Assembly: GCA_035524955.1 (NCBI GenBank)
Contig: DATLFG010000064.1
Span: 2,309 to 66,308, forward strand
Direction: 5' to 3'
Source: Candidatus Limnocylindria bacterium
Lineage (GTDB): Bacteria > Methylomirabilota > Methylomirabilia > Rokubacteriales > CSP1-6
DNA: 64,000 nt
Part shown: positions 35,220 through 54,138 of the stretch, in pieces
How the letters are laid out: each line of letters starts with the position of its first letter
How positions within the stretch are numbered: position 1 is the first letter of the stretch
Notes under the pieces: model-generated
Database searches by the model: none
What the model was told of the DNA's origin: nothing
The model's input: only the letters and a program-made list of their open reading frames with translations
Translations under genes and position numbers: made by a program

Positions 35220-38200
35220 ATGAGCAGGGAGAGCGCGGGCGGGCTCGAGTCGCGGCTGCGCGAGACGGCGGCGCTGCTCGCGGTGGCGCGCGTGGCGAGC
35301 GCCACCACCGACTTCGGCGAGGCCCTGCGCCTCATCTGCCGCGAGCTGGCCCGGCTCACCGGGGCCGAGACCGTCTCGGCGTACGTGCGGCAGGCGGTGG
35401 GCGCGGAGCTCCGGCCGGTCGCGGCCTATCACGTGCCCAAGGACGGGTTCGAGATCCTCGTCACCGCGCGCCTCAGCGCCGACGAGCAGCGGGGCTTCGA
35501 CGCGGTCTTCCAGAGCGGGCAGGTGATCTGGAGCGACGATCTCCCGAACGACCCGCGCTTCGCGATCCCCCTCTTCCGCCGCTTCCCGCACCAGTCGGGC
35601 CTCGTGATCCCGCTCTCCATCGACGGGCAGGTGGCGGGCGCCTTCTACCTGGTGTGGTGGACCGCGCGCCGCCGCTTCGAGGACGCGGAGCTGGCCACGC
35701 TCCAGGCCATCGGTGAGCAGGCGGGGGTGCTGCTCCGCAACGCGCGATTGCACGAGGCGCTCAACTTGCGGGCCGCGCGCCTGCACACGCTGGCCCGGCT
35801 CAACCAGCTCGTGTCCTCCTCGCTCGAGCCCGACGAGGTGCTGGGCGGCATCGCCAGCGCGGCGGTCGAGCTCATGCAGGTGCCAGCGGTGGCGGTCTGG
35901 GTGGTGGACGCGGCGGTGAAGCGCATCGAGGTCCGCGCGGCGGCCGGCGGCCTGACGCAGTTCCCGCGGCGCCCGGTGGACGTCGGCCAGGGCGACGTGG
36001 GCTGGGTGGCCGCGGAGCGCCGCCAGCTCGAGGTGGCGGACATCGCGGCCGACCCGCGGGCCACCGATCCGGAGTGGTGGCGGCGGAGCGGCCTCAAGAG
36101 CTTCCTCGGTGTCCCGATCATCTTCCGGGACCTGCTGCTGGGCGTGCTCGTGCTGAGCGGGCACGGACCCTTGCACTTCGGCCCCGACGACCGGGAGCTG
36201 CTCGAGATCTTCGTCAGCCAGTCGGCCGCCGCCATCGCCAAGGCGCGCCTCTTCCAGGACATCCAGGACCGGCGTCAGCTCACCGAAGACCTCTACGCGC
36301 TGACCCAGGCCATGGACCGGTCCATGGACCTGCAGGAGCGCGTGGAGATCTTCGCGACCGGCGCCAACCGTGCGCTCAGCTTCGACCGTCTCAACGTCTG
36401 GCTGGGCGAAGACGACGGCCTCCACCTGCGCCTGGTCTCGGGCAGCGACGCGGGGCCCGACGTCCCGCGGCTCATCCCGCTCCGGGACAGCGGCGGCCTC
36501 CAGGTGGTGTGGGACTCGGGCATCACGCTCATGGTGGGCAGCGACGAGCAGCTCGCCCAGGTGCCGCCCTTGGCCCGCGAGCTCCACTCCCACCCGGTGC
36601 TGCGCACCCGGCGCTTCGCGCTGGTGCCGCTGCTCGTCCAGGGGCGGCCGATCGGGGTGGTCAGCGTCGACAACAAGACGAGCCGCCGGCCGGTCACGCG
36701 GCGGGGGATCGCCCACCTCGAGCTCTTCTGCCAGCAGCTCGCCACCTCGGTCAACAACGCGCGCCTCTACGGGGAGACCCGCCAGCGCGAGCGCGACGCG
36801 ACCATCCTGCTCGACGTCACGCGCAAGCTCTCGGCCACCCTGAAGCTGGACGAGGTGATCGACCTCATCTCGGACGGGGTCATCGAGGCCCTCGGCTGCG
36901 CGGCCGCCGGCTTCTACCGGTGGGACGCCGCGCGCGCCGGCCTCGTGCCCGTGCGGAGCCGCAACCACGCGATGGACTTCGCCCGCCCGCTCCTGCTCCG
37001 GCCGGGCGAGGGGGTGACCGGGCGCGCCTACGCGGAGCGCCGGCCGGTGTGGTGCGCCGATCGGCTCGCGGATGCGAGCCTCGTGTACTCGGGGCCCAAC
37101 GCGGCGGCGATGGCCCGGCCCGACGCTCCGCGCGCGTTCGCGGCCGCGCCGATCCTGATCCGCGACGAGGTCTTCGGGGTGCTGGGCGGGTCCTACTTCC
37201 AGCCGCACGTCTTCACCGAGCGCGAGATCAGCCTGCTCTCGAGCCTGGCCGCGCAGGGGGCGGTGGCGATCGAGAACGCGCGCCTGTACTCGGTGACCCA
37301 GCAGAACCTCGCGGGGGCGGCGCTGCTCAACGCGGCGGCCCGCACCCTGCACCGCACCCTCGACGTCAAGCGCCTGCTGCCGGACGCGGCCGGCACGCTG
37401 GCCCAGACCTTCGGGGCGCGCCGCGCGGGCATCGTGCTGTTCGAGGAGCGGGGCGGCGGGCCGAGCGGGGTCATCTCGTGGGGCGACTGGAGTCACGAGT
37501 CGGTGCGCGCGCTCGCGGAGCCGCTGCGGCGCCGGGAGGCCCCGCTGCTGATCCCGGATTCCGGGGCCCGGAGCGACCTGGTCACCGCGGGGGTCCTCGG
37601 ACCGGAGGAGGCGCTGGCCGCGTTCCCGGTACGCGGCCGCAGCCGGGTGCTGGGCGGCCTGCTCCTGCTCTTCCCGACGCCCCGTGCGCTCACCGAGGCC
37701 GAGACGCGGCTGGTCGCGGCCTACGCCGACCAGCTCGCGATGGCGCTCGACAACGCCACCCTGTTCGAGGAGGCGGAGAACCAGAAGACCCGCCTCGAGC
37801 AGGTCTTCGCCTCGACGTCCGACGGGTTCCTGGGGCTGGATCTCGAGCGCCGAGTGGTGGCGCTCAACCGGCAGGGCGGCGCCCTGCTCGGGATCGACCC
37901 GCACGAGGTGACCGGGCGGCCGCTCGCCCAGCTGGTCGAGACGCTGGCGGGCTCGGTGGAGTGGGAGGCGCCGGGCGGGCGGGCGCTGGCGACCGCGGTG
38001 GAGCAGGCGGGCGAGCCGGCGGACGGCGACCTCGAGGTGCGGCTCCCCGACCGGCGGACGCTCCGCTGGCTGACCACCCCGACGCGCGACCTGCTCGGTG
38101 CGGTGGTCGGGACCACCATCACCCTGCGCGACGTGACGCGGGAGCGCGAGATCGACCGCATGAAGACCGAGTTCGTCTCGACGGTCTCGCACGAGCTGCG

Positions 38201-39269
38201 GACGCCGCTCACCTCCATCAAGGGGTCGCTGCACCTGCTGCTGTCCGACGACCGCCTGACGCTCGACGAGACCCAGCGCCACCTGGTGGACATCTCGCTC
38301 AAGAACACCGACCGGCTCATCCGGCTGATCAACAACATCCTGGACATCTCGAAGATGGAGGCGGGCCACATCCATCTCGACCTGGAGCTGCACCGCCCGC
38401 TGGACTTCGTCGAGATGGCGGTGGAGGGGATCCGGGGATTCGCGGAGTCGCGCGGCATCGCGATCGAATCCCGGGTGACCACCGACGTGCCGGTGGTGAG
38501 CGTGGACTTCGACCGGATGGTGCAGGTGGTGACCAACCTGCTCTCCAACGCGATCAAGTTCTCGCCGGAGCGCGGCCTCGTCACGGTGGGGGCCAGGCGC
38601 TCCGGCGCCGATCTCGAGATCTGGGTGACCGACCAGGGACAGGGCATCGCCCCCGAGGACGTGGGCCGTCTCTTCCGCAAGTTCCAGCAGCTCGACGGCC
38701 GTACCGTGCGCGCGGTGGGCGGCACCGGGCTCGGGCTCGCGATCTGCCGCGGCATCGTGGAGGAGCACGGCGGGCGGATCGGGGTGGACAGCCGGCCCGG
38801 CGCGGGCGCGACCTTCACGGTGCGCCTGCCGTTGCCCGCCACCGCGGGCGCCGCGCCGAGCGGGGAGCGGCCGGAGGAGCGCAAGGAGGAGGCCCCGCTG
38901 GTCCTGGTGGTGGACGACGATCCCGACGTGCGCGCGCTGCTGCGGGACGTGCTGCAGATCGGCGGGCTCCGGGTCATCGAGGCCGGCCGCGTCCTGGAGG
39001 GCGTGGAGCTGGCCCGCCAGCGTCGACCCGACGTGATCACGATGGACCTCATGCTGCCCGATCTCGATGGCTTCGAGGCGATCCGGCTCCTGCGCGAGCA
39101 GCCCGAGACCCGGAACACCCCGGTGGTGGTGCTGAGCGCGATCGAGGTCGAGCCCGGCGATCCCCGGGTGCTCGGCGCCACCGTGTGCCTGGCCAAGCCG
39201 TTCAGCTCGGCCGACGTGCTCAAGGCGATCCGCTCGCGACTGCCGCCGCGCGACGGGGTCGGCCCGTGA
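35220..39269 (+). CDS. Hybrid sensor histidine kinase (about 5 GAF + PAS + HisKA + HATPase + REC)
   Basis: 1349 aa. Five successive ~165-aa GAF-like units, each ending in ...NARL(Y/H/F)E-type helices. PAS (FASTSDGFLGLD...). H-box SHELRTPL, G-boxes DQGQGI and GGTGLGLAI. Receiver LVVDDDPDV...DLMLPDLDG. Confidence 0.9.
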   Translation: MSRESAGGLESRLRETAALLAVARVASATTDFGEALRLICRELARLTGAETVSAYVRQAVGAELRPVAAYHVPKDGFEILVTARLSADEQRGFDAVFQSGQVIWSDDLPNDPRFAIPLFRRFPHQSGLVIPLSIDGQVAGAFYLVWWTARRRFEDAELATLQAIGEQAGVLLRNARLHEALNLRAARLHTLARLNQLVSSSLEPDEVLGGIASAAVELMQVPAVAVWVVDAAVKRIEVRAAAGGLTQFPRRPVDVGQGDVGWVAAERRQLEVADIAADPRATDPEWWRRSGLKSFLGVPIIFRDLLLGVLVLSGHGPLHFGPDDRELLEIFVSQSAAAIAKARLFQDIQDRRQLTEDLYALTQAMDRSMDLQERVEIFATGANRALSFDRLNVWLGEDDGLHLRLVSGSDAGPDVPRLIPLRDSGGLQVVWDSGITLMVGSDEQLAQVPPLARELHSHPVLRTRRFALVPLLVQGRPIGVVSVDNKTSRRPVTRRGIAHLELFCQQLATSVNNARLYGETRQRERDATILLDVTRKLSATLKLDEVIDLISDGVIEALGCAAAGFYRWDAARAGLVPVRSRNHAMDFARPLLLRPGEGVTGRAYAERRPVWCADRLADASLVYSGPNAAAMARPDAPRAFAAAPILIRDEVFGVLGGSYFQPHVFTEREISLLSSLAAQGAVAIENARLYSVTQQNLAGAALLNAAARTLHRTLDVKRLLPDAAGTLAQTFGARRAGIVLFEERGGGPSGVISWGDWSHESVRALAEPLRRREAPLLIPDSGARSDLVTAGVLGPEEALAAFPVRGRSRVLGGLLLLFPTPRALTEAETRLVAAYADQLAMALDNATLFEEAENQKTRLEQVFASTSDGFLGLDLERRVVALNRQGGALLGIDPHEVTGRPLAQLVETLAGSVEWEAPGGRALATAVEQAGEPADGDLEVRLPDRRTLRWLTTPTRDLLGAVVGTTITLRDVTREREIDRMKTEFVSTVSHELRTPLTSIKGSLHLLLSDDRLTLDETQRHLVDISLKNTDRLIRLINNILDISKMEAGHIHLDLELHRPLDFVEMAVEGIRGFAESRGIAIESRVTTDVPVVSVDFDRMVQVVTNLLSNAIKFSPERGLVTVGARRSGADLEIWVTDQGQGIAPEDVGRLFRKFQQLDGRTVRAVGGTGLGLAICRGIVEEHGGRIGVDSRPGAGATFTVRLPLPATAGAAPSGERPEERKEEAPLVLVVDDDPDVRALLRDVLQIGGLRVIEAGRVLEGVELARQRRPDVITMDLMLPDLDGFEAIRLLREQPETRNTPVVVLSAIEVEPGDPRVLGATVCLAKPFSSADVLKAIRSRLPPRDGVGP

Positions 39270-40441
39270 GTCCCGCCCGCATCCTGGTCGTGGACGATGA
39301 GGCCGACATCAACACGATCCTGAGCGTGACCCTGCGGCGCGCGGGCTACGAGGTCATCAGCGCGGCCGACGGGCTCGAGGCCCTCGAGGTCATCCAGCTC
39401 CACGCCCCCGACCTGATCCTGCTCGACGTGATGATGCCGCGCGCGGACGGGCTCGAGGCCCTGCGCCGCATCCGGGAGCACGGACCCACCGCGCACACGC
39501 CGGTGATCATGCTGACCGCCAAGGGCACGCTCGCCGACAAGATGAAAGGGTTCGAGCGGGGCGCCGACGACTATGTGGCCAAGCCGTTCGAGCCGGCCGA
39601 GGTCCTGGCCCGCGTGCAGGCGCTGCTCAAGCGCACCGCCCAGTCGCGGGTGGTGCGCCCGCTCCTGAGTGTGCTGGGCGACTGGTTCACCGCCGAGCAC
39701 ATGGCCCAGTTCGGCCGCGACCTCGAGGCGGCCCGTGACATCCAGCAACGCCTGCTGCCGCCGGTGCCCGCGCGCGTGGCCGGGCTCGACGCGGGGGCGG
39801 TATTGCGCTCGTCGACCATCGTGGGGGGGGACTTCTTCGACATCTTCCCGATGGGCGAGCGCCTCGGGGTGGTGGTCGGCGACGTCTCCGGCAAGGGCAT
39901 TCCCGCCGCGCTGCTCATGGTCATGGTGCGGACGCTCCTGCGCGAGATCGCCCGGGCCGTGGCCGAGCCGGCGGATGTGCTGGCCCGGCTGAACGCCTCC
40001 CTCTGCCGGGACATGCCGCCGTCCATGTTCGTGACGCTGGTGCTGGCGGGGCTCGACCCATCCGATCCGGGTCGCGTGGTGCTCGCGGGCGGCGGCCATC
40101 CCGACCCGGTGGTCATCCGCGCGGACCGGGGCGCCGCGGTGGCCTCGCTCGGCGCGGCGGGCGGCACGATGCTCGGCGTGTTCGCCGACTCCGCGTTCGA
40201 GCAGATCGAGCTGACGCTGGCCGCGCCCGGCGATACGCTCCTGTTGCTGACCGACGGCATCGTGGAGGCCCAGAGCGCGGACGGGAGCCGCCCCGGCATG
40301 CCGGCCCTGCTGCCGTTCCTCGAGCGCGAGCGCGCCCTGAGCGCGCAGGCGCTGGCGGACCGCCTGACCGCGGACGTGCTCGATCGCGCCGGCTCGCGCC
40401 GGCAGGACGACATGACGGTCTTCGTGCTCAAACGCTCCTGA
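39266..40441 (+). CDS. Response regulator with PP2C/SpoIIE phosphatase output (RsbU-like)
   Basis: GTGA overlap with the kinase. REC domain (ILVVDDEADI...DVMMPRADG...KPF). PP2C motifs GGDFFDIF, VVGDVSGKG, TDGIVEA, DDMTVFVL. Confidence 0.9.
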   Translation: MSPARILVVDDEADINTILSVTLRRAGYEVISAADGLEALEVIQLHAPDLILLDVMMPRADGLEALRRIREHGPTAHTPVIMLTAKGTLADKMKGFERGADDYVAKPFEPAEVLARVQALLKRTAQSRVVRPLLSVLGDWFTAEHMAQFGRDLEAARDIQQRLLPPVPARVAGLDAGAVLRSSTIVGGDFFDIFPMGERLGVVVGDVSGKGIPAALLMVMVRTLLREIARAVAEPADVLARLNASLCRDMPPSMFVTLVLAGLDPSDPGRVVLAGGGHPDPVVIRADRGAAVASLGAAGGTMLGVFADSAFEQIELTLAAPGDTLLLLTDGIVEAQSADGSRPGMPALLPFLERERALSAQALADRLTADVLDRAGSRRQDDMTVFVLKRS

Positions 40442-40782: not shown

Positions 40783-40974
40783 TCAGCCGAAGATCAGATA
40801 GATCGCGACGCCGAGGAGCGCCAGCCAGACCGCGATGCCGACGAGGGCGGCGGTCTGGCCCTTGACGGGCTTGCCACCGGATCGCCGCCGGGAGACGCGG
40901 ACGCTGGTGAGGAGGATCAGGACGATCCCCGCCACCAGGATGATCGCGTCGACCAGGGCCACGGACTCGTCCAT
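40783..40974 (-). CDS. Small two-TM membrane protein (63 aa)
   Basis: MDESVALVDAIILVAGIVLILLTSVRVSRRRSGGKPVKGQTAALVGIAVWLALLGVAIYLIFG. Two hydrophobic helices separated by a basic loop. Confidence 0.5.
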   Translation of the reverse strand: MDESVALVDAIILVAGIVLILLTSVRVSRRRSGGKPVKGQTAALVGIAVWLALLGVAIYLIFG

Positions 40975-41004: not shown

Positions 41005-41484
41005 TCAGCGCGTCGCCGGCGCGTCGGGCGGGCGCGGCGGAGCAATCCGGATGTCGCGGATGGCTTCGATGCGCGCGCGCCGCTCCAGCTCGTCCGCGTC
41101 GAAGGCGCTCTCCTGATTGTCGGCTGACCGTACCACATAGGCGGGGCCGGTGGAGCCGTCGGGGAACGTGTGCTGGCGCTCGAGCCGTGCGACGATGCCC
41201 AGCGGCGCTCCATCCGCCATGCGGCTCAAGGTGTCGCCGGGACGGAAGAAGAACGCCCACTCGGTCTGGCCCAGGGAGCGGGAGACGGCCGGGGCGGGCG
41301 GCTCGGCGGGCGAGGCCGGCGGGACTTCGGCCGGCTGCGACGGGATCACCGCAGATGGAGCGGGCGGCGACGGAGCGGGCGCCTCCCGCGGCGCCCACAG
41401 CACGCCGAAGGCGGTGATCACGACCAGCAGCCCGAGCAGGACGCCGCCCAGGACCTTGAGGCGCAATGCGGTGGCCACCGTCAT
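41005..41484 (-). CDS. Membrane-anchored hypothetical protein (TM + Pro-rich linker + ~90-aa domain)
   Basis: ATG at 41484 (MTVATALRLKVLGGVLLGLLVVITAFGVLW). PAP/SPP-rich linker. The C-terminal domain has no motif I recognise. Confidence 0.5.
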   Translation of the reverse strand: MTVATALRLKVLGGVLLGLLVVITAFGVLWAPREAPAPSPPAPSAVIPSQPAEVPPASPAEPPAPAVSRSLGQTEWAFFFRPGDTLSRMADGAPLGIVARLERQHTFPDGSTGPAYVVRSADNQESAFDADELERRARIEAIRDIRIAPPRPPDAPATR

Positions 41485-41726
41485 GGCAGGAGGAGAAGGC
41501 AAGAACAGGGCCACTCGCCCTTCCAGTAATTGCACGCACTTAGCGTCGCTGCGCTGCGTCGTTTGACAAAGACTGGGCACCCGACCTGACAAGCTCCGGA
41601 GCCCGAGAGGCTTCGGTGACCTCAACTGTTTGATTTCGTGCGGCGGCCGGCATGGCTTGGCTCTTGCTGACTTACCCGGGCGGACGAGAGACGCGCCATG
41701 AACGAGACTCGGGGGACCCCGACGCG

Positions 41727-41807
41727 ATGCTGCTGACGACGCTGATCACCTTGCTGTTCATTGGGGTAAGTTCGGTCATTCTCTGGCTTTCGATAGGCGC
41801 CGAATAG
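41727..41807 (+). CDS. Hydrophobic micro-ORF (26 aa, or 51 aa from ATG 41652)
   Basis: MLLTTLITLLFIGVSSVILWLSIGAE, a single TM. Its stop abuts the AGGAGGAAGG SD of the next ORF. It lies in the lowest-GC stretch of the window. Confidence 0.3.
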   Translation: MLLTTLITLLFIGVSSVILWLSIGAE

Positions 41808-41820
41808 GAGGAAGGCGGCC

Positions 41821-42057
41821 ATGGGCACGCCCATAGCGGAGCAGGGCATCTCGCTGGAGACGGTGATGAAGCGCGGGGCACTGGTGTGCGTCGTCGCGGC
41901 GGGCGGTGTCGCGGTGGGACTGGCCGTCTGGGCCCTGCGCCGCTGGCAGGACGAGCGCCAGCATCAGGCCTGGCGCGCGTCGGTCAGTGCGGATCCCTAT
42001 CGGCGCGACCGCAACGCCTACCCGGTCGGCGCCCCGCTCGGGTACGCGCGCCGGTAG
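41821..42057 (+). CDS. Small membrane protein (78 aa)
   Basis: Strong SD AGGAGGAAGG 5 nt upstream of the ATG. TM segment GALVCVVAAGGVAVGLAVWAL. Confidence 0.5.
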   Translation: MGTPIAEQGISLETVMKRGALVCVVAAGGVAVGLAVWALRRWQDERQHQAWRASVSADPYRRDRNAYPVGAPLGYARR

Positions 42058-42138
42058 CGCTCCTCCAGCTTCGCCCGTCGTTCCCCCCCAGCCCCCACGC
42101 GGGCCCCCAGCGCCCACGCGGGATGGGCGCCGCTGCGC

Positions 42139-42147
42139 TGCTATACT
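42139..42147 (+). promoter_or_regulatory. Extended -10 promoter element (TGcTATACT)
   Basis: TG at 42139-42140, one nt, then TATACT at 42142-42147. No good -35. Lies upstream of the kinase::STAS/pel genes. Confidence 0.4.
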
Positions 42148-42173
42148 GAATCGCGCGATGTGGGGACCAGAGC

Positions 42174-43004
42174 GTGACCCGGGCAGAGCGTGACCCCGCG
42201 GCGCCCGGCCGCTTCACGATGTCGAGCGAGGCCCCCCAGCTCGCGCGGCTGCGTGAGTGGCTGCGCGAGGAGCTGGCCGGCCTCGGCGTGGAGCGCAAGA
42301 CCCTGGCGGCCCTCGTGCTGGCGGTGGGCGAGCTGTGCGCCAACTCCATCGAGCACGCTTACGAGGGCCGGGGTGGGCAGCCCATCCACGTCTCGATCCT
42401 GGGCCTCGAGGACCGGCTGGTCCTCGAAGTGGAGGACTTCGGACGGGCCTTCGACGCCGGCCGCTACGTCGAGCCAGATCTCGACGCGCTCCCGGACCAC
42501 GGGCTGGGCGTTCACCTGGTCCACCGTATCGCCGATTCGGTCTCGGTGGATGTGCGCCGGGAGCGGGGGACCCGGTGGACCCTCGTCAAGTTCCGGCCGG
42601 GTCATGGCCCGGCCGATCGCTCGATCGTGGAGAGCGGCGCCACGCCGCCGGCTCGATCAGGAGAGGCCATGGACATTGACGTAGCTCGCTCGGCCGCGAT
42701 CACGGTGGTCGTTCCCCGGGGCGACCTCGACATGGCGGCCGCGGATCAGATGAAGCAGGCCCTGACCGGCCTCGTCAACGAGGGGTCGGTCAAGCTGCTG
42801 GTGGATCTCGAGCAGGTCGGCTACATCGACAGCTCGGGCATGGGCGCCCTGGTCGCGACGCTCAAGCACGCCCGCGCCGCGGGCGGCGATCTGCGCCTCT
42901 GCGCGCTGCAGGATGACGTGCGGGCGATCTTCGAGATGACCCGGCTCAACAAGGCCGTCACGATCCACGGCACCCGGGGCGAGGCGCTGGCCGCGTGGGT
43001 CTGA
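42174..43004 (+). CDS. RsbW/SpoIIAB-like anti-sigma serine kinase fused in frame to STAS (anti-sigma antagonist) domain
   Basis: N-box ELCANSIEHAY, G1 VEDFGRAFD, G2 HGLGVHLV (aa ~16-140). Linker. STAS with the phosphorylatable motif YIDSSGMGAL (aa 166-276). No stop between the two domains. The likely start is ATG 42219 or GTG 42174. Confidence 0.8.
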   Translation: MTRAERDPAAPGRFTMSSEAPQLARLREWLREELAGLGVERKTLAALVLAVGELCANSIEHAYEGRGGQPIHVSILGLEDRLVLEVEDFGRAFDAGRYVEPDLDALPDHGLGVHLVHRIADSVSVDVRRERGTRWTLVKFRPGHGPADRSIVESGATPPARSGEAMDIDVARSAAITVVVPRGDLDMAAADQMKQALTGLVNEGSVKLLVDLEQVGYIDSSGMGALVATLKHARAAGGDLRLCALQDDVRAIFEMTRLNKAVTIHGTRGEALAAWV

Positions 43005-43864
43005 CGCGGCGCCTGCTCGCCGCCGCCCTCGCGCTGGGGCTCGGCGGAGCGTCGGCACCGGCCGCCTCTCCGGCTCGTCCCCTGGCGGGCGTGCGCACCT
43101 GGGTTGTCTATTACGCCGCGTCCCCCGAGGCGGCCGCGGACCTCGCCCGCTTCGACGTGGTCGTGCTCGATCCCCACGGTCACCCGCCGTTTCCCCTGGT
43201 CAAGCGGCACGGCTCGCTCCTGCTGACCTACGTGAGCCTGGGCGAGGTGCACACGAGCCATCCCGCCTACGCGGCCATCGCCGCCGAGCCGTGGGTGCTG
43301 TCCGCCAACCCGAACTGGCCCGACGCGCGCCGCCTCGACGTGCGCGCGTCCACCTACGAGCGCTGGCTGCTCGACCGGGTGGTGCCGGCTGCGCTGGCCG
43401 GCCCGGTCAATGGGCTCTTCCTCGACACCGCCGACACCGCGCTCGACCTCGAGCGGAGGGAGCCGCGCCGCTTCGAGGGCACGGCCCACGCCCTCGAGCG
43501 TGTGCTCGTGGAGATGAAGCGCCGGAACCCGCGCACGCTGCTGATGATCAACGGCGGTCTCCCGATCGTGGAGCGGCTGGCGACGGTGCTGGACGCGGTC
43601 GCACTCGAGTCGATCTGGACCGACTACGACTTCAAGTCCAAGGCCTACCGGATCCGGGCGGACGACGAGGCGGAGTCCCGGGCGCTCCTCCTGGACCGGG
43701 TGGTCGCGCTGGGCCTGCCGGTGTTCACGCTCGAGTACACGGCGGCCGACCACGGCGCGCCCTGGCCGGCCGAGCTGATCCGCCGCGCGCGGGCCCGGGG
43801 ATTCATCCCGTACGTGTCCATGATCGAGCTCGATCAGGTCTCGACGCACACCCTCGCTCCATGA
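42995..43864 (+). CDS. pelA: PelA-like glycoside hydrolase domain protein (TM1410/GH114-GH166-type TIM barrel)
   Basis: Signal peptide. WVVYYAASPEAAADLARFDVVVLDP...GLFLDTADT pattern, as in the PelA N-terminal hydrolase and endo-alpha-1,4-polygalactosaminidases. First gene of the pel cluster. The family assignment is by eye. Confidence 0.7.
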   Translation: MGLTRRLLAAALALGLGGASAPAASPARPLAGVRTWVVYYAASPEAAADLARFDVVVLDPHGHPPFPLVKRHGSLLLTYVSLGEVHTSHPAYAAIAAEPWVLSANPNWPDARRLDVRASTYERWLLDRVVPAALAGPVNGLFLDTADTALDLERREPRRFEGTAHALERVLVEMKRRNPRTLLMINGGLPIVERLATVLDAVALESIWTDYDFKSKAYRIRADDEAESRALLLDRVVALGLPVFTLEYTAADHGAPWPAELIRRARARGFIPYVSMIELDQVSTHTLAP

Positions 43865-43871
43865 CCGGCCC

Positions 43872-46004
43872 ATGATCAGAAAGCTCTCGCGGCGCGCCCT
43901 GCTCGGGCGCTCGGCGGCCGCGGCGGGCGCGCTGGCGCTGCGGGGGGCCGGCGTGTGGGCGCCCGTGGCGGAGGCCGCTCCCGCCCCGATGGCGCCGGCC
44001 ACGGGCAACCTGCCGCGGTACGTACTGGCCCTCTACAAGTCCGCCGAGGTCTACAACGACGTGGACGGCCGGCGACCCAAGACCGCCACCTTCAACGAGG
44101 TCCACAGCTGGGCCCAGATGCCGCTCAACTGGCTCGGGCTCATGGTCGAGTATCACGATGTCGACCGGGGCCTGCCCGATGAGCGGACCATGTCCCGCTA
44201 CCGTGGGGTGGTCACGTGGTTCCAGACCGAGGAGATGACGGCGCCCCTCGACTACGTGCGCTGGCTGGGCGCGCAGGTCCGGGCCGGGCGTCGGGTGGTG
44301 ATCCTCGACAACCTGGGCGCGCTCCGTGACCGCAAGAGCCTGCGAACCCTCGATCTCGCGGTGGTCAATCAGGCTCTCGCGCCGAGCGGGCTCGAGTTCC
44401 TGGGCAACTGGACGGGCAACCAGCAGGTCATCGAGGTGCGCCACAAGGATCCCAAGATGGTGGAGTTCGAGCGGCCGCTCCCGCCCGGGTTGCCGTACTA
44501 CCAGCAGGTGGTCTCGCGCCGGCCCGATTCGCGCGCGCACCTCGTGCTGGCCCGTCGCGACCTGCCGGACTCCGAGAGCCACATGGTGGTGACCGGCCCG
44601 TGGGGCGGGTTCGCAGCCGCGGAGTATACCCGCTTCCAGTTCCCGGGTGCGGCGGGCGCGCAGTGGTGGATCGACCCCTTCGCGTTCTTCCGCGAGGCGC
44701 TCGGGGTGGGGGACTGGCCGCGGCCCGACACCACGACCCAGTGCGGGCGGCGCATCTTCTACTCCCACATCGACGGGGACGGCCTGCGCAATCGCTCGGA
44801 GGTTCGCAAGGGCGCCTCGAGCGGCCAGATCGTTCTCGACGAGATCCTCTCGCGGTACCGTCTACCCACCAGCGTGTCGGTGGTGGTGGCCGAGGTGGAG
44901 CCGTCGCTTCTCGGCTCGCCCGAGTTCCACGAGCTCGCCCGCGCCATCTACCGGCTGCCGACCGTGGAGGCGGGCAGCCACTCCTACACGCATCCGCTGG
45001 ACTGGGAGAAGCAGACCCGGAGCTTCACGCCGGCCTCCATCCCCTACTCGGTGGAGACCGAGACCGCGGGCTCCATCCGCTACATCGAGGAGCGGCTCCT
45101 GCCGGCGGGCAAGCGGGTCCGCCTCTTCCAGTGGTCCGGGTCCACGCGGGTGAGCGAGGAGGCGATCGCCATCCTCGCGCGGCTGGGGGTCCCGAACATC
45201 AACGGCGGCGACACCATGCGCGACCGGGAGTGGCCGAGCTACACGCGGGTCGCGCCGCTGATGCGCCAGGTGGGCCGGCACTGGCAGACGTACACCTCGG
45301 CCTCCAACGAGAACCTCTACACCAACCTGTGGACGGGGCCCTTCTACGGCTTTCGCCACGTGGTCGAGACGTTCGAGAACACCGAGAAGCCGCGGCGCGT
45401 CGCGCCGGTCAACGTCTACTATCACTTCTACTCGGCCGAGCGCGTGGCCGCGCTGGCCTCGCTACGCTACGTGCACGACTGGGTCGCGCGGCAGCCTCTC
45501 GCGCGGCTCTTCACCAGTGAGTACCTCGCCATCGTGGAGGGCTTCCGGACCGCCCGCATCGCCCGCGCCGCGCCCGGCTGGCGCGTCTGGGACCACGGCG
45601 CCCTGCGCACGGTGCGCTTCGACGACACACGGGCGCCGGTGGATCTCGCGCGCTCGCGCGGCGTGCTCGGGTTCGTCCACCACCAGGGCGCGCTCTACGT
45701 GCACCTGGCCGGGCCCGAGCCCGCGCTGATCGTGCTCGGCGGCCGGCCACCCCGGACGCCGTACCTGGTGCAGGCGAGCCACCGGGTCACCGCCTGGAGC
45801 CGCGAGGCCGGGCGCGTCGCGGTGTCGCTCTCCGGCGTCGGCCCGAAGCTGGTCGAGCTGGCCGGCCTGCCTGCGGATCGCGACATGCCGGTGGAGATCC
45901 GCGAGGGCTCCGGGGCGCGGCGCGAGCAGGCACGGAGCGGGCCCGACGGCCACCTCACGGTCCGCGCCGGGGAGGCCACGGACGTGGAGATGCGGCTCGG
46001 GTGA
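43872..46004 (+). CDS. pelA: PelA-like polysaccharide deacetylase (CE4-type) multidomain protein
   Basis: Tat-like signal SRRALLGRSAAAAGALAL. CE4-like motifs HIDGDG and HSYTHP. 710 aa. Confidence 0.7.
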   Translation: MIRKLSRRALLGRSAAAAGALALRGAGVWAPVAEAAPAPMAPATGNLPRYVLALYKSAEVYNDVDGRRPKTATFNEVHSWAQMPLNWLGLMVEYHDVDRGLPDERTMSRYRGVVTWFQTEEMTAPLDYVRWLGAQVRAGRRVVILDNLGALRDRKSLRTLDLAVVNQALAPSGLEFLGNWTGNQQVIEVRHKDPKMVEFERPLPPGLPYYQQVVSRRPDSRAHLVLARRDLPDSESHMVVTGPWGGFAAAEYTRFQFPGAAGAQWWIDPFAFFREALGVGDWPRPDTTTQCGRRIFYSHIDGDGLRNRSEVRKGASSGQIVLDEILSRYRLPTSVSVVVAEVEPSLLGSPEFHELARAIYRLPTVEAGSHSYTHPLDWEKQTRSFTPASIPYSVETETAGSIRYIEERLLPAGKRVRLFQWSGSTRVSEEAIAILARLGVPNINGGDTMRDREWPSYTRVAPLMRQVGRHWQTYTSASNENLYTNLWTGPFYGFRHVVETFENTEKPRRVAPVNVYYHFYSAERVAALASLRYVHDWVARQPLARLFTSEYLAIVEGFRTARIARAAPGWRVWDHGALRTVRFDDTRAPVDLARSRGVLGFVHHQGALYVHLAGPEPALIVLGGRPPRTPYLVQASHRVTAWSREAGRVAVSLSGVGPKLVELAGLPADRDMPVEIREGSGARREQARSGPDGHLTVRAGEATDVEMRLG

Positions 46005-48223
46005 AGATCGAGCGCTGGAAGCTCGGGCTGGGCGTGCTGCTCGCCCTCGCACTGCTCGCGCTCTCGGTGCCGTGGGGCGCCGACCTGGGCTGGGCCTATC
46101 TGGCCGACCGGCAGTACGAGCTGGCGCGCGAGATGTTCACCGAGGCGCTGCGCGGCGAGCCCACCGACGCCAATCTCTGGCTGGGACTGGCCGCGACCTA
46201 CGAGGCGCTCGGCGATCCCGACCGGCAGGTCGCGACGCTCGAGGACGCAGCGCGCCGCCTGCCGCGCCGGCGCGACCTGCTGGTGAATCTGGCCGACGCC
46301 TACCAGGCCAACCGGGACCCCGCCGCGGCCGCGGCGGTGATCGAGCGGCTCACCGCGACCCCGGGCCCGGACGACGCGCCGCTGCTCGAGCGCCTGCTCA
46401 CCGCGTACCTGTGGAAGGGCGATTACGAGCGTCAGCTCGCGGTGCTGCGCAAGCTGCTCGCGCTCAGCCCGACCGATCCGGCGGTCGTGCTGGAGCTGGC
46501 CACCGTCGCGCGGAGCCTGAACCGGCAGGACGAGGCGGTGACGGTGCTGGAAGCCTACGTCCGGCGGCGGCCCGGTGACCCGGAGGGCCGGCGCTGGCTC
46601 GCCCAGATTTACGACTCACTCGGGCAGGGGGATCGCGCGATCGAGCACTGGAAGGTCCTGGCACGCGTCGCGCCGGACGATGTCGAAGCCCGCGACCGCC
46701 TGCTCCCGGCGCCCGGCGGCGCGCCGCGCGTGGAAGAGATCGCCCTGCTCGAGCGCCAGCGCGCGGCGGATCCGCGCGACGAAGCGGCACGCCGCCGCCT
46801 GGTGGACCTCTACCGCGCGGCCGGCGACGGCCCCCGCGCGATCCGCGCGCAGCAGGAGCTGGCCGCGCTGCGCCCCCGCGATCACGACGCGCTCGCCCGG
46901 CTGGGCCGCCTGCTCGTCGAGCAGGATCGCGGGCCCGAGGCGATCGTCGCGTACGAGCGGGCGGTCGAGATCGCGCCCGAGCGGCTCGACACCGCGCTGG
47001 CCCTGGCCCAGCTCTACGAGTGGGGGGACGAGCCGCGCCGCGCGCTGGCCTTGCTCGACCGCGTCGCGAGGGCGCGCCCCGCGGATCGCGCGCTACAGGA
47101 GCGGGTGGCCGCGCTCGCCCAGGGAAGCGACGACCTCCGGGCCACGCTGGCGGCGCTGGACCGGCTCGCCGCGCTCGCCCCGCTGGACGGGCGCCACGCC
47201 CGGCAGGCGGTGGACGCGCTGGTCGCCGCGAACCGCCTGCCCGAGGCGATCGCGCGTCAGCGCCGGATCGCCGAGCAGCACCCGGGGGCGCCTGGCCCCG
47301 CGCTGAGGCTCGCGCAGCTCCACGAGTGGAACAATCAGGAGCGCGAGGCCATCGCGGTGTACGAAGGGCTCGACCGCGCGGGCGCGCTGCCCGGGTCCTC
47401 GCTCGGCCGGCTCGCCGAGCTCTATCGATTCCAGGATCGCCCCGCGGATTTCCTGCGGGTGGCCGACCGACTCCTCGCGCGCCGGCCGGACGACTGGGCG
47501 CTCCGCGACGCGGCCGCCCAGACCGCCGAGGGGCTCGGGCGGCCCGGGGACGCGGTGCGCCTGCTAGAGCCCGTGGTGGAGCGGCGACCCCTCGACGAGG
47601 CCTTCGTGCTCCGCTACCTGGCGCTCACCGCGCAGGCCGGGCGCGCGGACGACGGGCTCCGCGTGCACCGGCGCTTCGCGGCCGGGGCGGGCGCGGCCTA
47701 CCGGGCGAAGGCGGGGCGGATCCTGATGGATCTCGGCAAGTATCCGGACGCGGTCGCGGAGTACGAGGCGGTGCTCGCGGCGGCCCCGGGCGCCGGCGAC
47801 GACGCGGTGGCCGCGCGCCTGGCCCTGGCTCAGCTCCACGACTGGACGGGCGCGGCCCAGCCCGCGCTCCGGCAGTGGGAGAGTCTCATGCGCGCCCGCC
47901 CGGGCGATCCGCGGGTGCTCCGCGAGGTGGGCCGGCGCAGCCTCGCGCTGTCGCGCCACGACGTGGCCCTGCGCGCCTACCGCTCGCTGCTCGCGGTCGA
48001 GCCCGACGACGCGGAGGCGCTCAAGCGGGCCGGGCAGCTCATGGCCTGGAGCCAGGACGCGCGCGGGGCGCGGGTCGCGCTCGAGCGCTTCAACCGCGTG
48101 AAGGGTGGGGACTACGAAGTCCACTACCTCCTGGGCGAGCTCTACTCCGCCGATCGGGACGAGGAGCGCGCGCGCCTCGAGTACGAGCGCGCGCTCCGGC
48201 TCCTGCCCGCTCGCCCCCGCTGA
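46001..48223 (+). CDS. pelB: PelB-like TPR scaffold protein (N-terminal part)
   Basis: GTGA overlap. N-terminal TM, then TPR repeats over about 700 aa. Confidence 0.75.
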   Translation: MKIERWKLGLGVLLALALLALSVPWGADLGWAYLADRQYELAREMFTEALRGEPTDANLWLGLAATYEALGDPDRQVATLEDAARRLPRRRDLLVNLADAYQANRDPAAAAAVIERLTATPGPDDAPLLERLLTAYLWKGDYERQLAVLRKLLALSPTDPAVVLELATVARSLNRQDEAVTVLEAYVRRRPGDPEGRRWLAQIYDSLGQGDRAIEHWKVLARVAPDDVEARDRLLPAPGGAPRVEEIALLERQRAADPRDEAARRRLVDLYRAAGDGPRAIRAQQELAALRPRDHDALARLGRLLVEQDRGPEAIVAYERAVEIAPERLDTALALAQLYEWGDEPRRALALLDRVARARPADRALQERVAALAQGSDDLRATLAALDRLAALAPLDGRHARQAVDALVAANRLPEAIARQRRIAEQHPGAPGPALRLAQLHEWNNQEREAIAVYEGLDRAGALPGSSLGRLAELYRFQDRPADFLRVADRLLARRPDDWALRDAAAQTAEGLGRPGDAVRLLEPVVERRPLDEAFVLRYLALTAQAGRADDGLRVHRRFAAGAGAAYRAKAGRILMDLGKYPDAVAEYEAVLAAAPGAGDDAVAARLALAQLHDWTGAAQPALRQWESLMRARPGDPRVLREVGRRSLALSRHDVALRAYRSLLAVEPDDAEALKRAGQLMAWSQDARGARVALERFNRVKGGDYEVHYLLGELYSADRDEERARLEYERALRLLPARPR

Positions 48224-48270
48224 CCGCCTCCTCCCTTGAACGCGGCGGACGTCGCCACCATACTCGCTCG

Positions 48271-49743
48271 ATGACCCGGCTTCGCCGCGCCCGCGGGATC
48301 GGATTCCTCCTGGGAGTGTGCCTGGGCTCGAGCCTGGCCAGCCCGCTCATGCCGGCGCGCGCGCAGACGCCGCCCGACGCTTCCGAGGCGCCCGAGGTCG
48401 CGGACCCGCTCGAGGCGGAGATGGTGCGGGCGCGCATCCTGGCCCGGCTCGGCCTGTTCGCGGAGGCGCTCGCGGCCTACCGCGCGCTGCTCGAGCGCCA
48501 CCGGGACCACCGCGCACTCCGTGAAGACTACGCGGAGGTGCTCGTGGACGCGGGGCAGCTCGAGCAGGCGGCCCCCGTGGTGGATCGGTACCTGGCCGAT
48601 GATCCCACGTCGGCGCGGTTGCGCCGGCTGCGGGCCCGGATCGACATGGCCCGGGGCGCGCCCGCCGAGGCGGGCCGCCGGCTCGAGGCGCTCGCGCGCG
48701 AGCAGCCGGAGGACGCCGGGATCGCCGCGGATCTGGCCGCGGCCGAGCTCGGCGCGGGCCGGTGGAGCCGGGCGTTCGACCTCTACGCGCGGCTGCTCGA
48801 CGCGGATCCGGAGAACCGTGAGGCCCTGGCCGCCCACCGCGAGATCCTCCTGGGCCACGCTCCGCGCGTCGAGCTGATGCATTCCACGCTGCTCCAGGCC
48901 GCGGCCACGCATCACGTGGAGGAGGCGGCGTGGCGCGGCTGGCTGGCCGACCGCTGGTGGCTGCGGGTGGGTGGCCGCCACGGCAGCTACATCCAGGATC
49001 GTGTGGTGGGCCGGTCCGCGTTCAGCGAGGAGGTGTGGACCGCGCTCGCCACGGTCGGGTTCCAGCCTACGCGCGCGATCACGCTCTGGGCCGGGCTCGA
49101 GGAGTCGCGGCGTCGCGAGGACATCTACCGCACCACCGCGCGGCTCGGCGGGGCCTGGGACGACGCGAAGGCCACCGGCGTGACGCTGGACGTGGCCATC
49201 CGCGAGCTGCTCACCAATCCGGTGGCCGCGCTGCCGCGGAACGGCACGACCGACCGGGTGACGGTGGACGTGGCGCGCCGCGTCCTGGTCCCGGTGGTGC
49301 TGGGCGCGCACTACGCCTTCCGGCACTACCGCGTCTCCGGGGAGGATCTGGGGGACCGCTGGGAGGCGGCGGGGCGGGCGGAGCTCGAGCTCGTGCGCAG
49401 CCGCGTGCAGGTCACGCTGATCCCGCAGGTATTTTTTTCCCGGTACACCGCGACCGCGGGCGGCGCCCTGCGCGAGGCCGTCTCGTTCCTCAAGCGCGAA
49501 GACGTGCTGGGCATCGGGAGCGTGGTGGGCTGGGACGTCACGCCCACGCTGCGCCTGCAGGCCGGCGCGGTGGGGCGGCGCGACCTGTTTCGCGCGCTCA
49601 CCTCGTGGGAGGTCAACGGGGAAGGGCGGTGGCGAATTCGCCCCTGGCTGGAGGGACGCGTGCTCTATACTCGCAACACCGAGTCCACCGGGGTGGGCGG
49701 CCAGGAGGAATTCTTCCTGGGCCGCCTCGACATCCTGTACTGA
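48271..49743 (+). CDS. pelB: PelB-like TPR + outer-membrane beta-barrel porin (C-terminal part)
   Basis: Signal peptide ...LMPARAQ. About 200 aa of TPR, then alternating-hydrophobic beta-strand sequence. The C-terminus, FFLGRLDILY, ends in an aromatic residue. Confidence 0.7.
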   Translation: MTRLRRARGIGFLLGVCLGSSLASPLMPARAQTPPDASEAPEVADPLEAEMVRARILARLGLFAEALAAYRALLERHRDHRALREDYAEVLVDAGQLEQAAPVVDRYLADDPTSARLRRLRARIDMARGAPAEAGRRLEALAREQPEDAGIAADLAAAELGAGRWSRAFDLYARLLDADPENREALAAHREILLGHAPRVELMHSTLLQAAATHHVEEAAWRGWLADRWWLRVGGRHGSYIQDRVVGRSAFSEEVWTALATVGFQPTRAITLWAGLEESRRREDIYRTTARLGGAWDDAKATGVTLDVAIRELLTNPVAALPRNGTTDRVTVDVARRVLVPVVLGAHYAFRHYRVSGEDLGDRWEAAGRAELELVRSRVQVTLIPQVFFSRYTATAGGALREAVSFLKREDVLGIGSVVGWDVTPTLRLQAGAVGRRDLFRALTSWEVNGEGRWRIRPWLEGRVLYTRNTESTGVGGQEEFFLGRLDILY

Positions 49744-50312
49744 TGAGACCGATATCGCGGAACATCCTGCTGCTGGCGGTCGCGGCGCTGATCGCGTCCG
49801 GCTGCGCGAGCGCGGTGCAGGAGTGGGTGAAGCCCGGCGCCGGCCGCGTCGACCGCGTCGCGGTGCTGCCCTTCGAGAACCAGACCACCGCGCTGCGCGC
49901 CGGCCAGTCCGCCGCCGATCTCCTCGTCACCGAGCTGCTCGCCACCGGCGCGGTCGCGGTGATGGACCCGAGCGAGGCTGCCGATCTCCTCCGCCGCGAG
50001 AACCTGGATCCGGCCGACGCGGGCCGCCTGCCGTCCGCGCAGCGGATCGGCCGGCTCCTGCAGGTGAGCCACGTGCTGCAGGGCTCGGTGACCGAGTACC
50101 GCTACAAGCCCGGTCTGTCCGAGACGCCCGCGGTCGGCGTCACCGCGCGGCTCGTGGAGGTGACCTCCGGCGACGTGGTGTGGAGCGCGAGCCACGCCCG
50201 CCTCGGCTCCTCGTGGATCCGCGAGGACGGGCTCGCGCGCGTGGCGCAGCAGGTGGCCCGGGACATGGCCGCCCATCTGACGGGCGCCCTGGGCGACGCG
50301 CGGGCGCGGTAA
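49743..50312 (+). CDS. pelC: PelC-like outer-membrane lipoprotein
   Basis: Lipobox LIASGC. 189 aa. The start overlaps the preceding stop (TGATG). Confidence 0.75.
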   Translation: MRPISRNILLLAVAALIASGCASAVQEWVKPGAGRVDRVAVLPFENQTTALRAGQSAADLLVTELLATGAVAVMDPSEAADLLRRENLDPADAGRLPSAQRIGRLLQVSHVLQGSVTEYRYKPGLSETPAVGVTARLVEVTSGDVVWSASHARLGSSWIREDGLARVAQQVARDMAAHLTGALGDARAR

Positions 50313-50319
50313 GCGCCGG

Positions 50320-51672
50320 GTGCTCGCCACACTCCGCCGCGACCGGTCCTACCTGCTCGAGCTGGGCGGCGGGCTTCTCGTGCTCGCGGTGGTCAACCTG
50401 CTGCTGCGGCCGAAGGATCCCGGCTTCCTCGCGGTGCAGCCGAACCCGGCCCTGCTCCTCGTCGCGGTGGTGGCCTGCCGCCACGGGCTTCGCGCGGGTC
50501 TCGTGAGCGGGCTCGTCACCGCGGCGCTGGTCACCGCGGGCATCCTGGCGCGTCTCGAGTACCTGACCTGGAGCGAGCTGCGCACGCTCGCGCACTACGT
50601 GACGCCGCTGCTGCTGATCGGCACCGGCTTCGGGCTGGGCGCGCAGCGGGAGTCGCTCCGGCGCGCTACGCTCACCCTGGAGCGCCGCGTCGAGGCGCTC
50701 GAGCACGAGCTGGCCGAGCAGGCGGTGCGCTTCATGGCCGCGACCGAGGCCAAGCACGAGCTGGAGCGGCGGGTGGCCGACGAGCGCGCGTCGCTCTCGA
50801 GCCTCTACACCGCGGCGCGCGCGCTGGAGACCCTCGACGCGGAGCGCCTCTATCCCGCCGTCGCGCTCACCGCGCGCCGCTTCCTGGAGGCCGACGCCTG
50901 CCAGTGCTACGTGCTCGAGGGCGAGCTGCTGCGTCTGCGCGCCGCGGAGGGGCCGGCCCCCGAGCGGGCGGAGATCCCGCCCGACGAGGGCCTGGTGGGC
51001 CTGGCGATCCGCCTCGGGCGTCCGGTCAGCGTGCGCGACGCGACCGTGATCGGCTCGCTCGACGATCTCCACACCGCGAGCCTGCTGATGGCGGCCCCGC
51101 TGCTGGGCCCCCAGGGCACGCTGCTCGGCTGCGTCACGGTGACGTCGCTGCCGTTCCTGCGCCTCACCGCCGCCTCGCTCGACCGCCTGGGCCTGGTCGC
51201 GGACTGGGGCGCGCGGGCCCTCGCGAACGCGCGGACGCACCAGGAGACGCGGGCGCGAACCATCGAGGACGATCTGGTGGGCGCCTACACCTACGCGTAC
51301 TACCAGCGCCGGCTCCACGAGGAGGAGATGCGCGCGGACCGCTACGGCCGCCCGCTCGCGGTGGTGATCTTCCGCATCCTGCGCTTCGGGGCGGTGGCGC
51401 CCGCTCGCCGCATCGAGCTGGGGCGCGTGCTGTCGCTCGTGTTCTCGCGCACCCTCCGGGACGTGGACATCGTGTGCCGGTACGCCACCGAGGACGCCTT
51501 CGCGATCGTCCTGCCGGAAACCTCGCCCGCGCACGCCGAGGTCGTCGTGGCGCGTCTCTCGCGCGAGATCGGGAACTTCCACTTCGCCCCCTACGGGGAC
51601 GAGACGCAGGATCTCGAGTTCTCGGCCCGTGTCCTCGCGGTGCGGGAGCGGCCCGGAGGAGTGACGTCCTGA
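50320..51672 (+). CDS. pelD: PelD-like c-di-GMP receptor (TM + GAF + degenerate GGDEF)
   Basis: Four N-terminal TM segments, coiled coil and GAF. GGDEF-like domain with RDVD (RxxD) followed by RYATEDAF in place of GGDEF. Confidence 0.8.
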   Translation: MLATLRRDRSYLLELGGGLLVLAVVNLLLRPKDPGFLAVQPNPALLLVAVVACRHGLRAGLVSGLVTAALVTAGILARLEYLTWSELRTLAHYVTPLLLIGTGFGLGAQRESLRRATLTLERRVEALEHELAEQAVRFMAATEAKHELERRVADERASLSSLYTAARALETLDAERLYPAVALTARRFLEADACQCYVLEGELLRLRAAEGPAPERAEIPPDEGLVGLAIRLGRPVSVRDATVIGSLDDLHTASLLMAAPLLGPQGTLLGCVTVTSLPFLRLTAASLDRLGLVADWGARALANARTHQETRARTIEDDLVGAYTYAYYQRRLHEEEMRADRYGRPLAVVIFRILRFGAVAPARRIELGRVLSLVFSRTLRDVDIVCRYATEDAFAIVLPETSPAHAEVVVARLSREIGNFHFAPYGDETQDLEFSARVLAVRERPGGVTS

Positions 51673-54133: not shown

Positions 54134-54138
54134 GGGCG

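Follow-up and report, generated by a model that had tools for sequence, protein, structure and literature searches.

Partner-switching modules govern stress responses and sporulation as well as virulence and the formation of biofilms, and their behaviour hinges on the stoichiometry of the kinase and its antagonist. The locus described here raises the question of what a cell can make from such a pair when both partners are encoded in one reading frame. The window, a stretch of 64,000 nucleotides (nt) of contig DATLFG010000064.1 (positions 2,309 to 66,308 of the forward strand; assembly GCA_035524955.1, Candidatus Limnocylindria bacterium, placed by GTDB in the Rokubacteriales of the Methylomirabilota), carries an RsbW-like kinase fused to an RsbV-like STAS antagonist (W::V), and an in-frame ATG preceded by a Shine-Dalgarno (SD) sequence stands where the antagonist begins. 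Does this gene yield one protein or two, and how did it become fused? Our comparisons support the view that a kinase/antagonist stop-loss fusion, which has kept a selected internal start, heads a pel operon in Rokubacteria; there are also signs that the same internal-start design is widespread. The features of the gene are as follows (aa, amino acids).

42174..43004, + strand: full-length kinase::STAS (W::V) open reading frame (ORF), 276 aa, GTG start, TGA stop
42222..42587, + strand: RsbW/SpoIIAB-type GHKL serine kinase domain, residues 17-138 (Pfam HATPase_c_2, 1.8e-23)
42330-42344, + strand: N-box with E53 and N57 (the G1 box is D88xG90 and the G2 box G110xG112)
42594..42668, + strand: variable, disordered linker of about 25 aa, residues 141-165, whose length and sequence vary among orthologues
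42657..42659, + strand: TCA codon of Ser162, the kinase stop TGA in split relatives, with the same frame and flanks in both
42659..42666, + strand: retained SD sequence AGGAGAGG, with its GGAG core at 42660-42663, 5 nt before the ATG
42669..43004, + strand: nested STAS ORF from the internal in-frame ATG (Met166), a predicted free antagonist of 111 aa
42831-42833, + strand: AGC codon of Ser220 in the DSSG motif, the phospho-acceptor predicted by homology

The initial annotation had placed the kinase and STAS motifs in one frame without a stop. The frame is indeed open throughout, from the GTG at 42174 to the TGA at 43004, and it contains ELCANSIEHAY (N-box), DFGRAFD (G1) and HGLGVHLV (G2) as well as YIDSSGMGAL (D219-S220-S221-G222). 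The SD sequence and its 5-nt spacing to the ATG at 42669 were likewise found exactly as annotated. The G+C content by codon position (0.77/0.48/0.90) is a coding signature in a window of 72% G+C, and the start at 42174 agrees in the alignment with the ATG/GTG starts of the orthologues P0001 and P0015. The kinase half scores 83 bits against Pfam HATPase_c_2 (cut-off 27), while its NCBIfam RsbW/SpoIIAB-like matches fall below the equivalog cut-offs. Pfam STAS covers residues 168-271 (2.1e-19), and NCBIfam ant_ant_sig (TIGR00377) gives 79 bits on the full ORF and 81 bits on the STAS part alone, with a cut-off of 53.

AlphaFold2 with 57 orthologues gave two confident domains (predicted TM-score, pTM, 0.77), and residues 147-164 between them were disordered (pLDDT <50). 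By Foldseek, the kinase half resembles SpoIIAB (1th8_A, TMt 0.82) and also RsbW, UsfX and the kinase domain of Rv1364c (3ke6), and the STAS half resembles SpoIIAA, RsbV and TM1442 (1thn_B, 6m36_B and 1vc1, TMt 0.88-0.92). E53, N57, D88, G90, G110, G112 and DSSG are invariant across the 57 fused orthologues. Judged by fold and by its N, G1 and G2 boxes, the first half belongs to the GHKL kinases of the RsbW/SpoIIAB type, and the second, by fold and by the serine of DSSG, to the anti-sigma-factor antagonists. Its phospho-acceptor is presumably Ser220, which we take to be equivalent to Ser58 of SpoIIAA. The linker corresponds to what used to be the kinase's C-terminal tail, together with the spacer that once lay between the two genes. 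A disordered tether of 25-45 residues would be of sufficient length to bring the STAS domain to the active site of a kinase, either in cis or between the subunits of a dimer.

The closest proteins to the 276-aa fusion come from Methylomirabilota/Rokubacteria metagenome-assembled genomes (MAGs) and from soil metagenomes, and the fused architecture is common to about 57 clusters (90% identity) with identity down to 54%. Stand-alone kinases of 152-156 aa also occur; these are 60-81% identical to the kinase half and stop in the alignment at the '..RSGE.MD' position of the fused proteins. Scans of GTDB genomes and of JGI metagenomes gave 97 related loci, and the fused and split loci are considered orthologous because they have the same flanking genes. 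The junction codons of the window are TCA (42657-9), GGA (42660-2), GAG (42663-5), GCC (42666-8) and ATG (42669-71). Counting the window, 83 loci are fused with the junction TCA (or CCA) GGA GAG/GAC NNC ATG, CCA being found in four of them (L086, L087, L089 and L107), and 11 loci are split, with TGA GGA GAG ANC ATG in the same frame. In the four deeper outgroups (L013-15 and L017) the genes are split as well, and spacers and frames differ.

It had been proposed in the initial annotation that the junction is a former rsbW stop and rsbV start whose ribosome-binding site (RBS) survives, in which case orthologues should have a stop near 42650-42668. The 11 split loci bear this out, as they carry an in-frame TGA exactly at the TCA of the window, followed by GGAGAG-NNC-ATG. 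Because TGA and TCA stand in the same frame and between the same flanks, the fusion is evidently a one-base change of the kinase stop codon to a serine codon (TGA to TCA) at 42657-42659. The stop codon of the kinase overlapped the RBS of the antagonist (TGAGGAGAG-N3-ATG), and in the TGA-split relatives the STAS gene has no candidate RBS other than the AGGAGA motif. The order of the two domains had also been pointed out as unusual. It is the reverse of that in Bacillus, but it is not specific to the fusion and is ancestral here, the split relatives and the outgroups having the kinase first as well.

To follow the two states, a neighbour-joining tree was built from 80 distinct sequences and 237 gap-free codons of the kinase core and STAS, and rooted on L017. 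It requires three changes between the fused and the split state; over 100 bootstraps the minimum was two changes in 24, three in 67 and four in 9, and never one. Within this family there have been at least two transitions between the states. The shared TCA, with its derivative CCA, would be more easily explained by a single fusion that later reverted than by a large number of parallel G-to-C transversions. A more distant Rokubacteria member (P0061 at locus L120, 54% identity) is fused through another junction, GAAAGGGAGCCAGTG-ATG, which still bears an SD-like site. In its gene (1598-2419) an SD-like AAGGGAG lies 6 nt before the STAS ATG, and REC-PP2C phosphatase, fusion and GH114 genes are directly adjacent. 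Because its junction sequence is different, it is evidently an independent fusion event.

Several singletons differ from these states. In P0060 (371 aa) the linker is frameshifted, the truncated STAS of P0270 (508 aa) runs into GH114, and P0058, P0062 and P0072 have chimeric C-termini; all five are probably assembly errors or pseudogenes and not further junction states. Orthologues with Rokubacteria synteny were also found in MAGs labelled Acidoferrum, Dormiibacterota or Nitrosotalea, an archaeon (L002, L009 and L011), which looks like mis-binning. The clostridial loci L018-L029 were considered as independent fusions and rejected, as they are ordinary spoIIAA-spoIIAB pairs with the antagonist first and separate ORFs.

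Conservation of the internal start was analysed at synonymous sites in 65 distinct fused sequences with pairwise nucleotide identities of 74%-99.9% (median 81%). The comparison set consisted of the 63 four-fold-degenerate codons with invariant first and second bases, and parsimony changes were counted on the tree. Third positions in this set had a median of about 5 changes; 1/63 was unchanged, and none had a majority of A or T. The two four-fold sites inside the SD sequence (NCA and GGA) were A in 65/65 with 0 changes; with a third-position G+C content of 90%, TCA and GGA count among the disfavoured codons. The internal ATG was also kept in 65/65, AGGAGA was invariant in all 76 distinct fused and TGA-split sequences, and the codon separating the SD sequence from the ATG varied freely among the fused sequences. 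The SD sequence pairs with the anti-SD with a dG of -7.4, a stronger pairing than at roughly 77% of the gene starts listed for the window, and CAGGAGAG also stands before the window gene at 60897. The region from -25 to +15 of the internal ATG (40 nt) is less structured than the remaining ORF (mean z +1.27). Taken together, the invariant SD sequence and ATG, the synonymous turnover elsewhere, the low structure and the use of the same site as RBS in the split relatives indicate purifying selection on an internal RBS and start codon within the fused gene. Such a pair, apparently conserved beyond coding needs, is one of the characteristics of dual-product genes, and two products, the tethered fusion and free STAS, are likely.

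Other mechanisms were also considered. A sigma-70 promoter and terminator scan of 41600-43200, covering this one promoter type, gave no match and therefore no support for an internal promoter producing a STAS-only transcript. Programmed frameshifting or readthrough was rejected, as the junction has no slippery sequence and a plain sense codon, and TGA is a normal stop, which it also is for this ORF.

Kinase::STAS fusions are also found far beyond this family. When 1.84 billion representatives (50% clustering) were searched exhaustively, about 35 of the best 150 matches were kinase-then-STAS proteins of 235-290 aa with 26-39% identity, and about 8 were larger (540-905 aa, P0160 and P0229 among them) with the same C-terminal pair. 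The two-domain HATPase_c_2::STAS fusion itself is thus already known and common. The remark in the initial annotation that larger fusions such as Rv1364c are known is right for the large forms among these distant relatives, but it was too narrow, the two-domain form being common too. A profile search of the protein database from the distant fusions (A3) returned almost only the Rokubacteria family, and the distant fusions analysed below come from the exhaustive search.

In 23/45 distant W::V fusions (26-39% identity) a methionine stands exactly at the projected STAS start, and in 36/45 within ±2 residues. The corresponding numbers for 60 internal STAS domains without a preceding kinase were 6/60 and 10/60 (Fisher p = 5e-6 for the exact position and 5e-11 for ±2; background Met frequency 2.4%). 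Nine distant fusions had DNA available. An SD-like site within the top 3% of its own ORF and at the right spacing was present in six of them (L111, L112, L114, L115, L116 and L117), that of L115 being a perfect AGGAGG and the best SD-like site of its gene, and L118 has a weaker site than these six. We tentatively raise the possibility that a kept antagonist RBS and start may be a general selected trait of bacterial kinase::STAS fusions, Rv1364c-like proteins included, and that toggling between TGA and TCA may act as an evolutionary rheostat of the tethered/free ratio and the switch threshold. No description of an RsbW-RsbV fusion with internal initiation was found in the open-access literature. 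The surroundings of these unrelated fusions show recurring themes. L111 lies among glycosyltransferase/WecG/Bac_transf polysaccharide genes, and L113 and L119 among HEAT-repeat and MlaE/ABC/MlaD lipid-transport genes. Directly upstream of L117 is a gene for a HAMP-SpoIIE phosphatase, and the neighbours of L115 are REC, secretin, another STAS gene and a PilZ-sigma54 activator.

The genes around the fusion in the window suggest what the module may respond to and what it may control.

35220..39269, + strand: hybrid sensor kinase with five GAF domains, PAS, HisKA, HATPase_c and a C-terminal REC domain (Pfam)
39266..40441, + strand: REC-PP2C (SpoIIE-type) phosphatase (Pfam Response_reg and SpoIIE), 1.7 kb upstream of the fusion
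40783-40974 (- strand), 41005-41625 (- strand) and 41821-42057 (+ strand): three small genes without a Pfam match, between the REC-PP2C gene and the fusion
42995..43864, + strand: GH114 (PelA-like) protein (Pfam GH114), the first pel gene, its GTG start and the stop of W::V overlapping by 10 nt
43872-46004: 710-aa protein without a Pfam match, pel operon
46001-48223: TPR PelB-like protein, pel operon
48930-50312: CsgG/LpoB-like lipoprotein, PelC candidate, pel operon
50320-51672: PelD-like protein with GAF and degenerate GGDEF domains, pel operon
52610-54133: PelF, a DUF3492-GT4 glycosyltransferase, pel operon
54139-55554: PelG, pel operon

A complete pel-like exopolysaccharide operon (42995-55554) follows the fusion, with PelA apparently divided between two genes. 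The adjacency of fusion and GH114 gene is kept in fused and split loci, and no terminator-like site was seen between the fusion and the pel genes in the 41600-43200 scan. A REC-PP2C gene lies directly upstream of the kinase in L008, L015, L017 and L120, and the hybrid sensor kinase is syntenic in L015, L017 and L099. Because they stand directly before the kinase gene in the outgroups and in some split loci, the REC-PP2C phosphatase and the hybrid kinase are likely partners of the module, the former as the cognate RsbU-like phosphatase and the GAF hybrid kinase as its input. A SpoIIE/RsbU-type PP2C phosphatase, as expected for partner switching, is thus co-encoded. The hybrid kinase is unusually large, its stop overlaps the REC-PP2C start (39266-39269), and no Hpt protein was seen near it. 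The three small genes are found at about 50-88% identity in most related loci; they are absent from the outgroups, in which phosphatase and kinase genes are adjacent.

These observations can be arranged in one mechanism. Ribosomes starting at 42174 would make a 276-aa protein in which the flexible linker of about 25 aa ties the kinase to its substrate, and ribosomes starting at 42669 would make the free 111-aa STAS protein. Like Rv1364c, the fusion would act on the STAS domain that it carries, phosphorylating Ser220 either in cis or between the subunits of a dimer. The GAF hybrid histidine kinase encoded upstream would control the REC-PP2C phosphatase, and this would dephosphorylate STAS, free or tethered, and so flip the switch. 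The output would most likely be control of Pel exopolysaccharide production, which is proposed because the fusion is the first cistron of the pel operon. The direct target may be a sigma factor, or else a partner of another kind as with SypA or HsbA. Close relatives one base apart form a natural series of two genes versus a fused gene with a conserved internal start. Fused modules may still make free antagonist, and fusion would then shift the tethered/free ratio and not abolish the free pool; that this ratio sets the switch, as the initial annotation held, is speculation. The boundary-Met enrichment suggests a wide reach, including Rv1364c-like proteins that are now annotated and studied as single products, and here a partner-switching module would be tied to a pel operon in Rokubacteria, an abundant uncultured soil phylum.

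We consider this whole explanation, namely a stop-loss W::V fusion with a kept internal start, two proteins, a PP2C-controlled switch and Pel output, to be probable. The evolutionary part of the original interpretation was supported by the TGA-split relatives, and its two-product part is made probable by the conservation of the SD sequence and ATG, the low structure and the boundary Met of distant fusions. Several points weigh against the explanation. The SD motif by itself is unremarkable and lacks significance in a genome so rich in GC and purines, as 9.3% of random 19-nt stretches of the window pair equally well with the anti-SD (dG <= -7.4 kcal/mol); the significance of the SD sequence and ATG comes from the comparative data, i.e. 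the invariance in 65/65 fused orthologues, and not from the motif. Internal initiation within a translated ORF can be inefficient. The link to Pel is drawn from gene order, and no sigma factor or other target gene was found near the fusion in the window or in the related loci. The tree is a neighbour-joining tree only, and repeated fusion and reversion both fit the state changes. Two of the nine distant fusions with DNA, the Mla-associated L113 and L119, have no SD sequence at the STAS boundary, and a linker rich in G, E, R and K codons tends to resemble an SD sequence through its composition, so that the evidence from this small sample is weaker.

Against this background it could be argued that the tethered full-length kinase-STAS protein is the sole product, in which case the gene would simply be a well-documented gene fusion by stop-codon loss, and that AGGAGA-N5-ATG is kept for another reason. 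The reason might be an amino-acid need for Ser/Pro-Gly-Glu-x-Met at the boundary of linker and STAS, an SD-like pause in translation that gives the kinase time to fold ahead of the emerging STAS domain, or an element at the RNA level that acts for the pel genes downstream. The second product is predicted from sequence comparison, Gly163 and Met166 are invariant at the protein level so that codon positions 1-2 are not fully separable from amino-acid constraint, and the pTM of 0.77 suggests that the domains pack as one unit. However, the constraint reaches third positions, where the rare TCA/CCA and GGA show 0 changes whereas 62/63 comparison sites changed and none prefers A. Moreover, the remaining linker is hypervariable, the identical motif serves as RBS in the split relatives, and a boundary Met in 10/60 non-kinase internal STAS domains versus 36/45 fusions argues that Met is not a requirement of the fold. 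We therefore regard a single product as unlikely, while still giving it some weight. A good deal less probable is that the SD sequence and ATG are leftovers of recent recurrent fusions whose RBS has not decayed, the fused and split states being functionally near-equivalent. A single base suffices for the change, the state changed at least twice, L120 is a further independent fusion, and the widespread boundary Met of unrelated fusions is what frequent de novo fusion predicts. On the other hand, compared with the pace of synonymous turnover the main fused clade is old (identity down to 74%, a median of about 5 four-fold changes), and even the nearest fused/split pair is just 85% identical. The TCA, or its derivative CCA, throughout this clade would also be hard to obtain by many independent G-to-C transversions. 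An assembly or sequencing artefact hiding a true stop or frameshift at the junction has a negligible chance of being the explanation. A few singleton database variants do have frameshifts or chimeric ends (P0060, P0058 and P0270), but 82 further loci, drawn from many independent metagenomes and MAGs, have the same in-frame junction, the 99-100% identical contig L031 among them.

Known systems resemble the proposed two-product module in part. The RsbW-RsbV and SpoIIAB-SpoIIAA pairs of Bacillus have the same folds and motifs (TMt 0.82-0.92 to 1th8, 1thn and 6m36) and a PP2C phosphatase nearby. They are separate genes with the antagonist first, whereas the window encodes one polypeptide with the kinase first and without an adjacent sigma factor gene, and identity is about 20-29%. 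Rv1364c of M. tuberculosis (PAS-PP2C-RsbW-RsbV) also has the kinase and then STAS in one chain, and it is reported to autophosphorylate and autodephosphorylate its own tethered STAS (Greenstein 2009, as cited in PMC7693655). It unites sensor, PP2C, kinase and STAS in a single chain, unlike the protein of the window, which has two domains only and a separate PP2C. No report of an internal start or second product for Rv1364c was found in the searchable open-access literature.

In P. aeruginosa's HptB-HsbR-HsbA pathway and CrsR-CrsA of Shewanella, hybrid kinases likewise feed a REC-controlled PP2C that acts on STAS. Their output is the choice between biofilm and motility, and free STAS also has FlgM and HsbD as partners (PMC6482189). 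In HsbR/CrsR the kinase is fused to the REC-PP2C and STAS is free, whereas here the kinase is fused to STAS and the REC-PP2C is free. SypE-SypA of Vibrio fischeri is a kinase/PP2C-STAS module within an exopolysaccharide locus, as proposed here, and controls polysaccharide and biofilm production via a STAS-only protein (PMC3610818, PMC10120452). It differs in that SypE is a kinase-REC-PP2C protein and SypA a separate gene, and in the polysaccharide, syp versus pel. The non-kinase partners of free STAS in the Hsb and Syp systems may, by analogy, be a rationale for keeping a free pool.

Nested internal starts are also known from other genes, and CheA-S is one example. In the SctQ/HrcQ genes of type III secretion systems an in-frame internal RBS and start precede a self-contained C-terminal domain, and the internal-start C-terminal domain of HrcQ interacts with the full-length product (PMC8553256). 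The protein families are unrelated, and the internal start in the window, for which dual products are predicted, is the start of a formerly separate gene.

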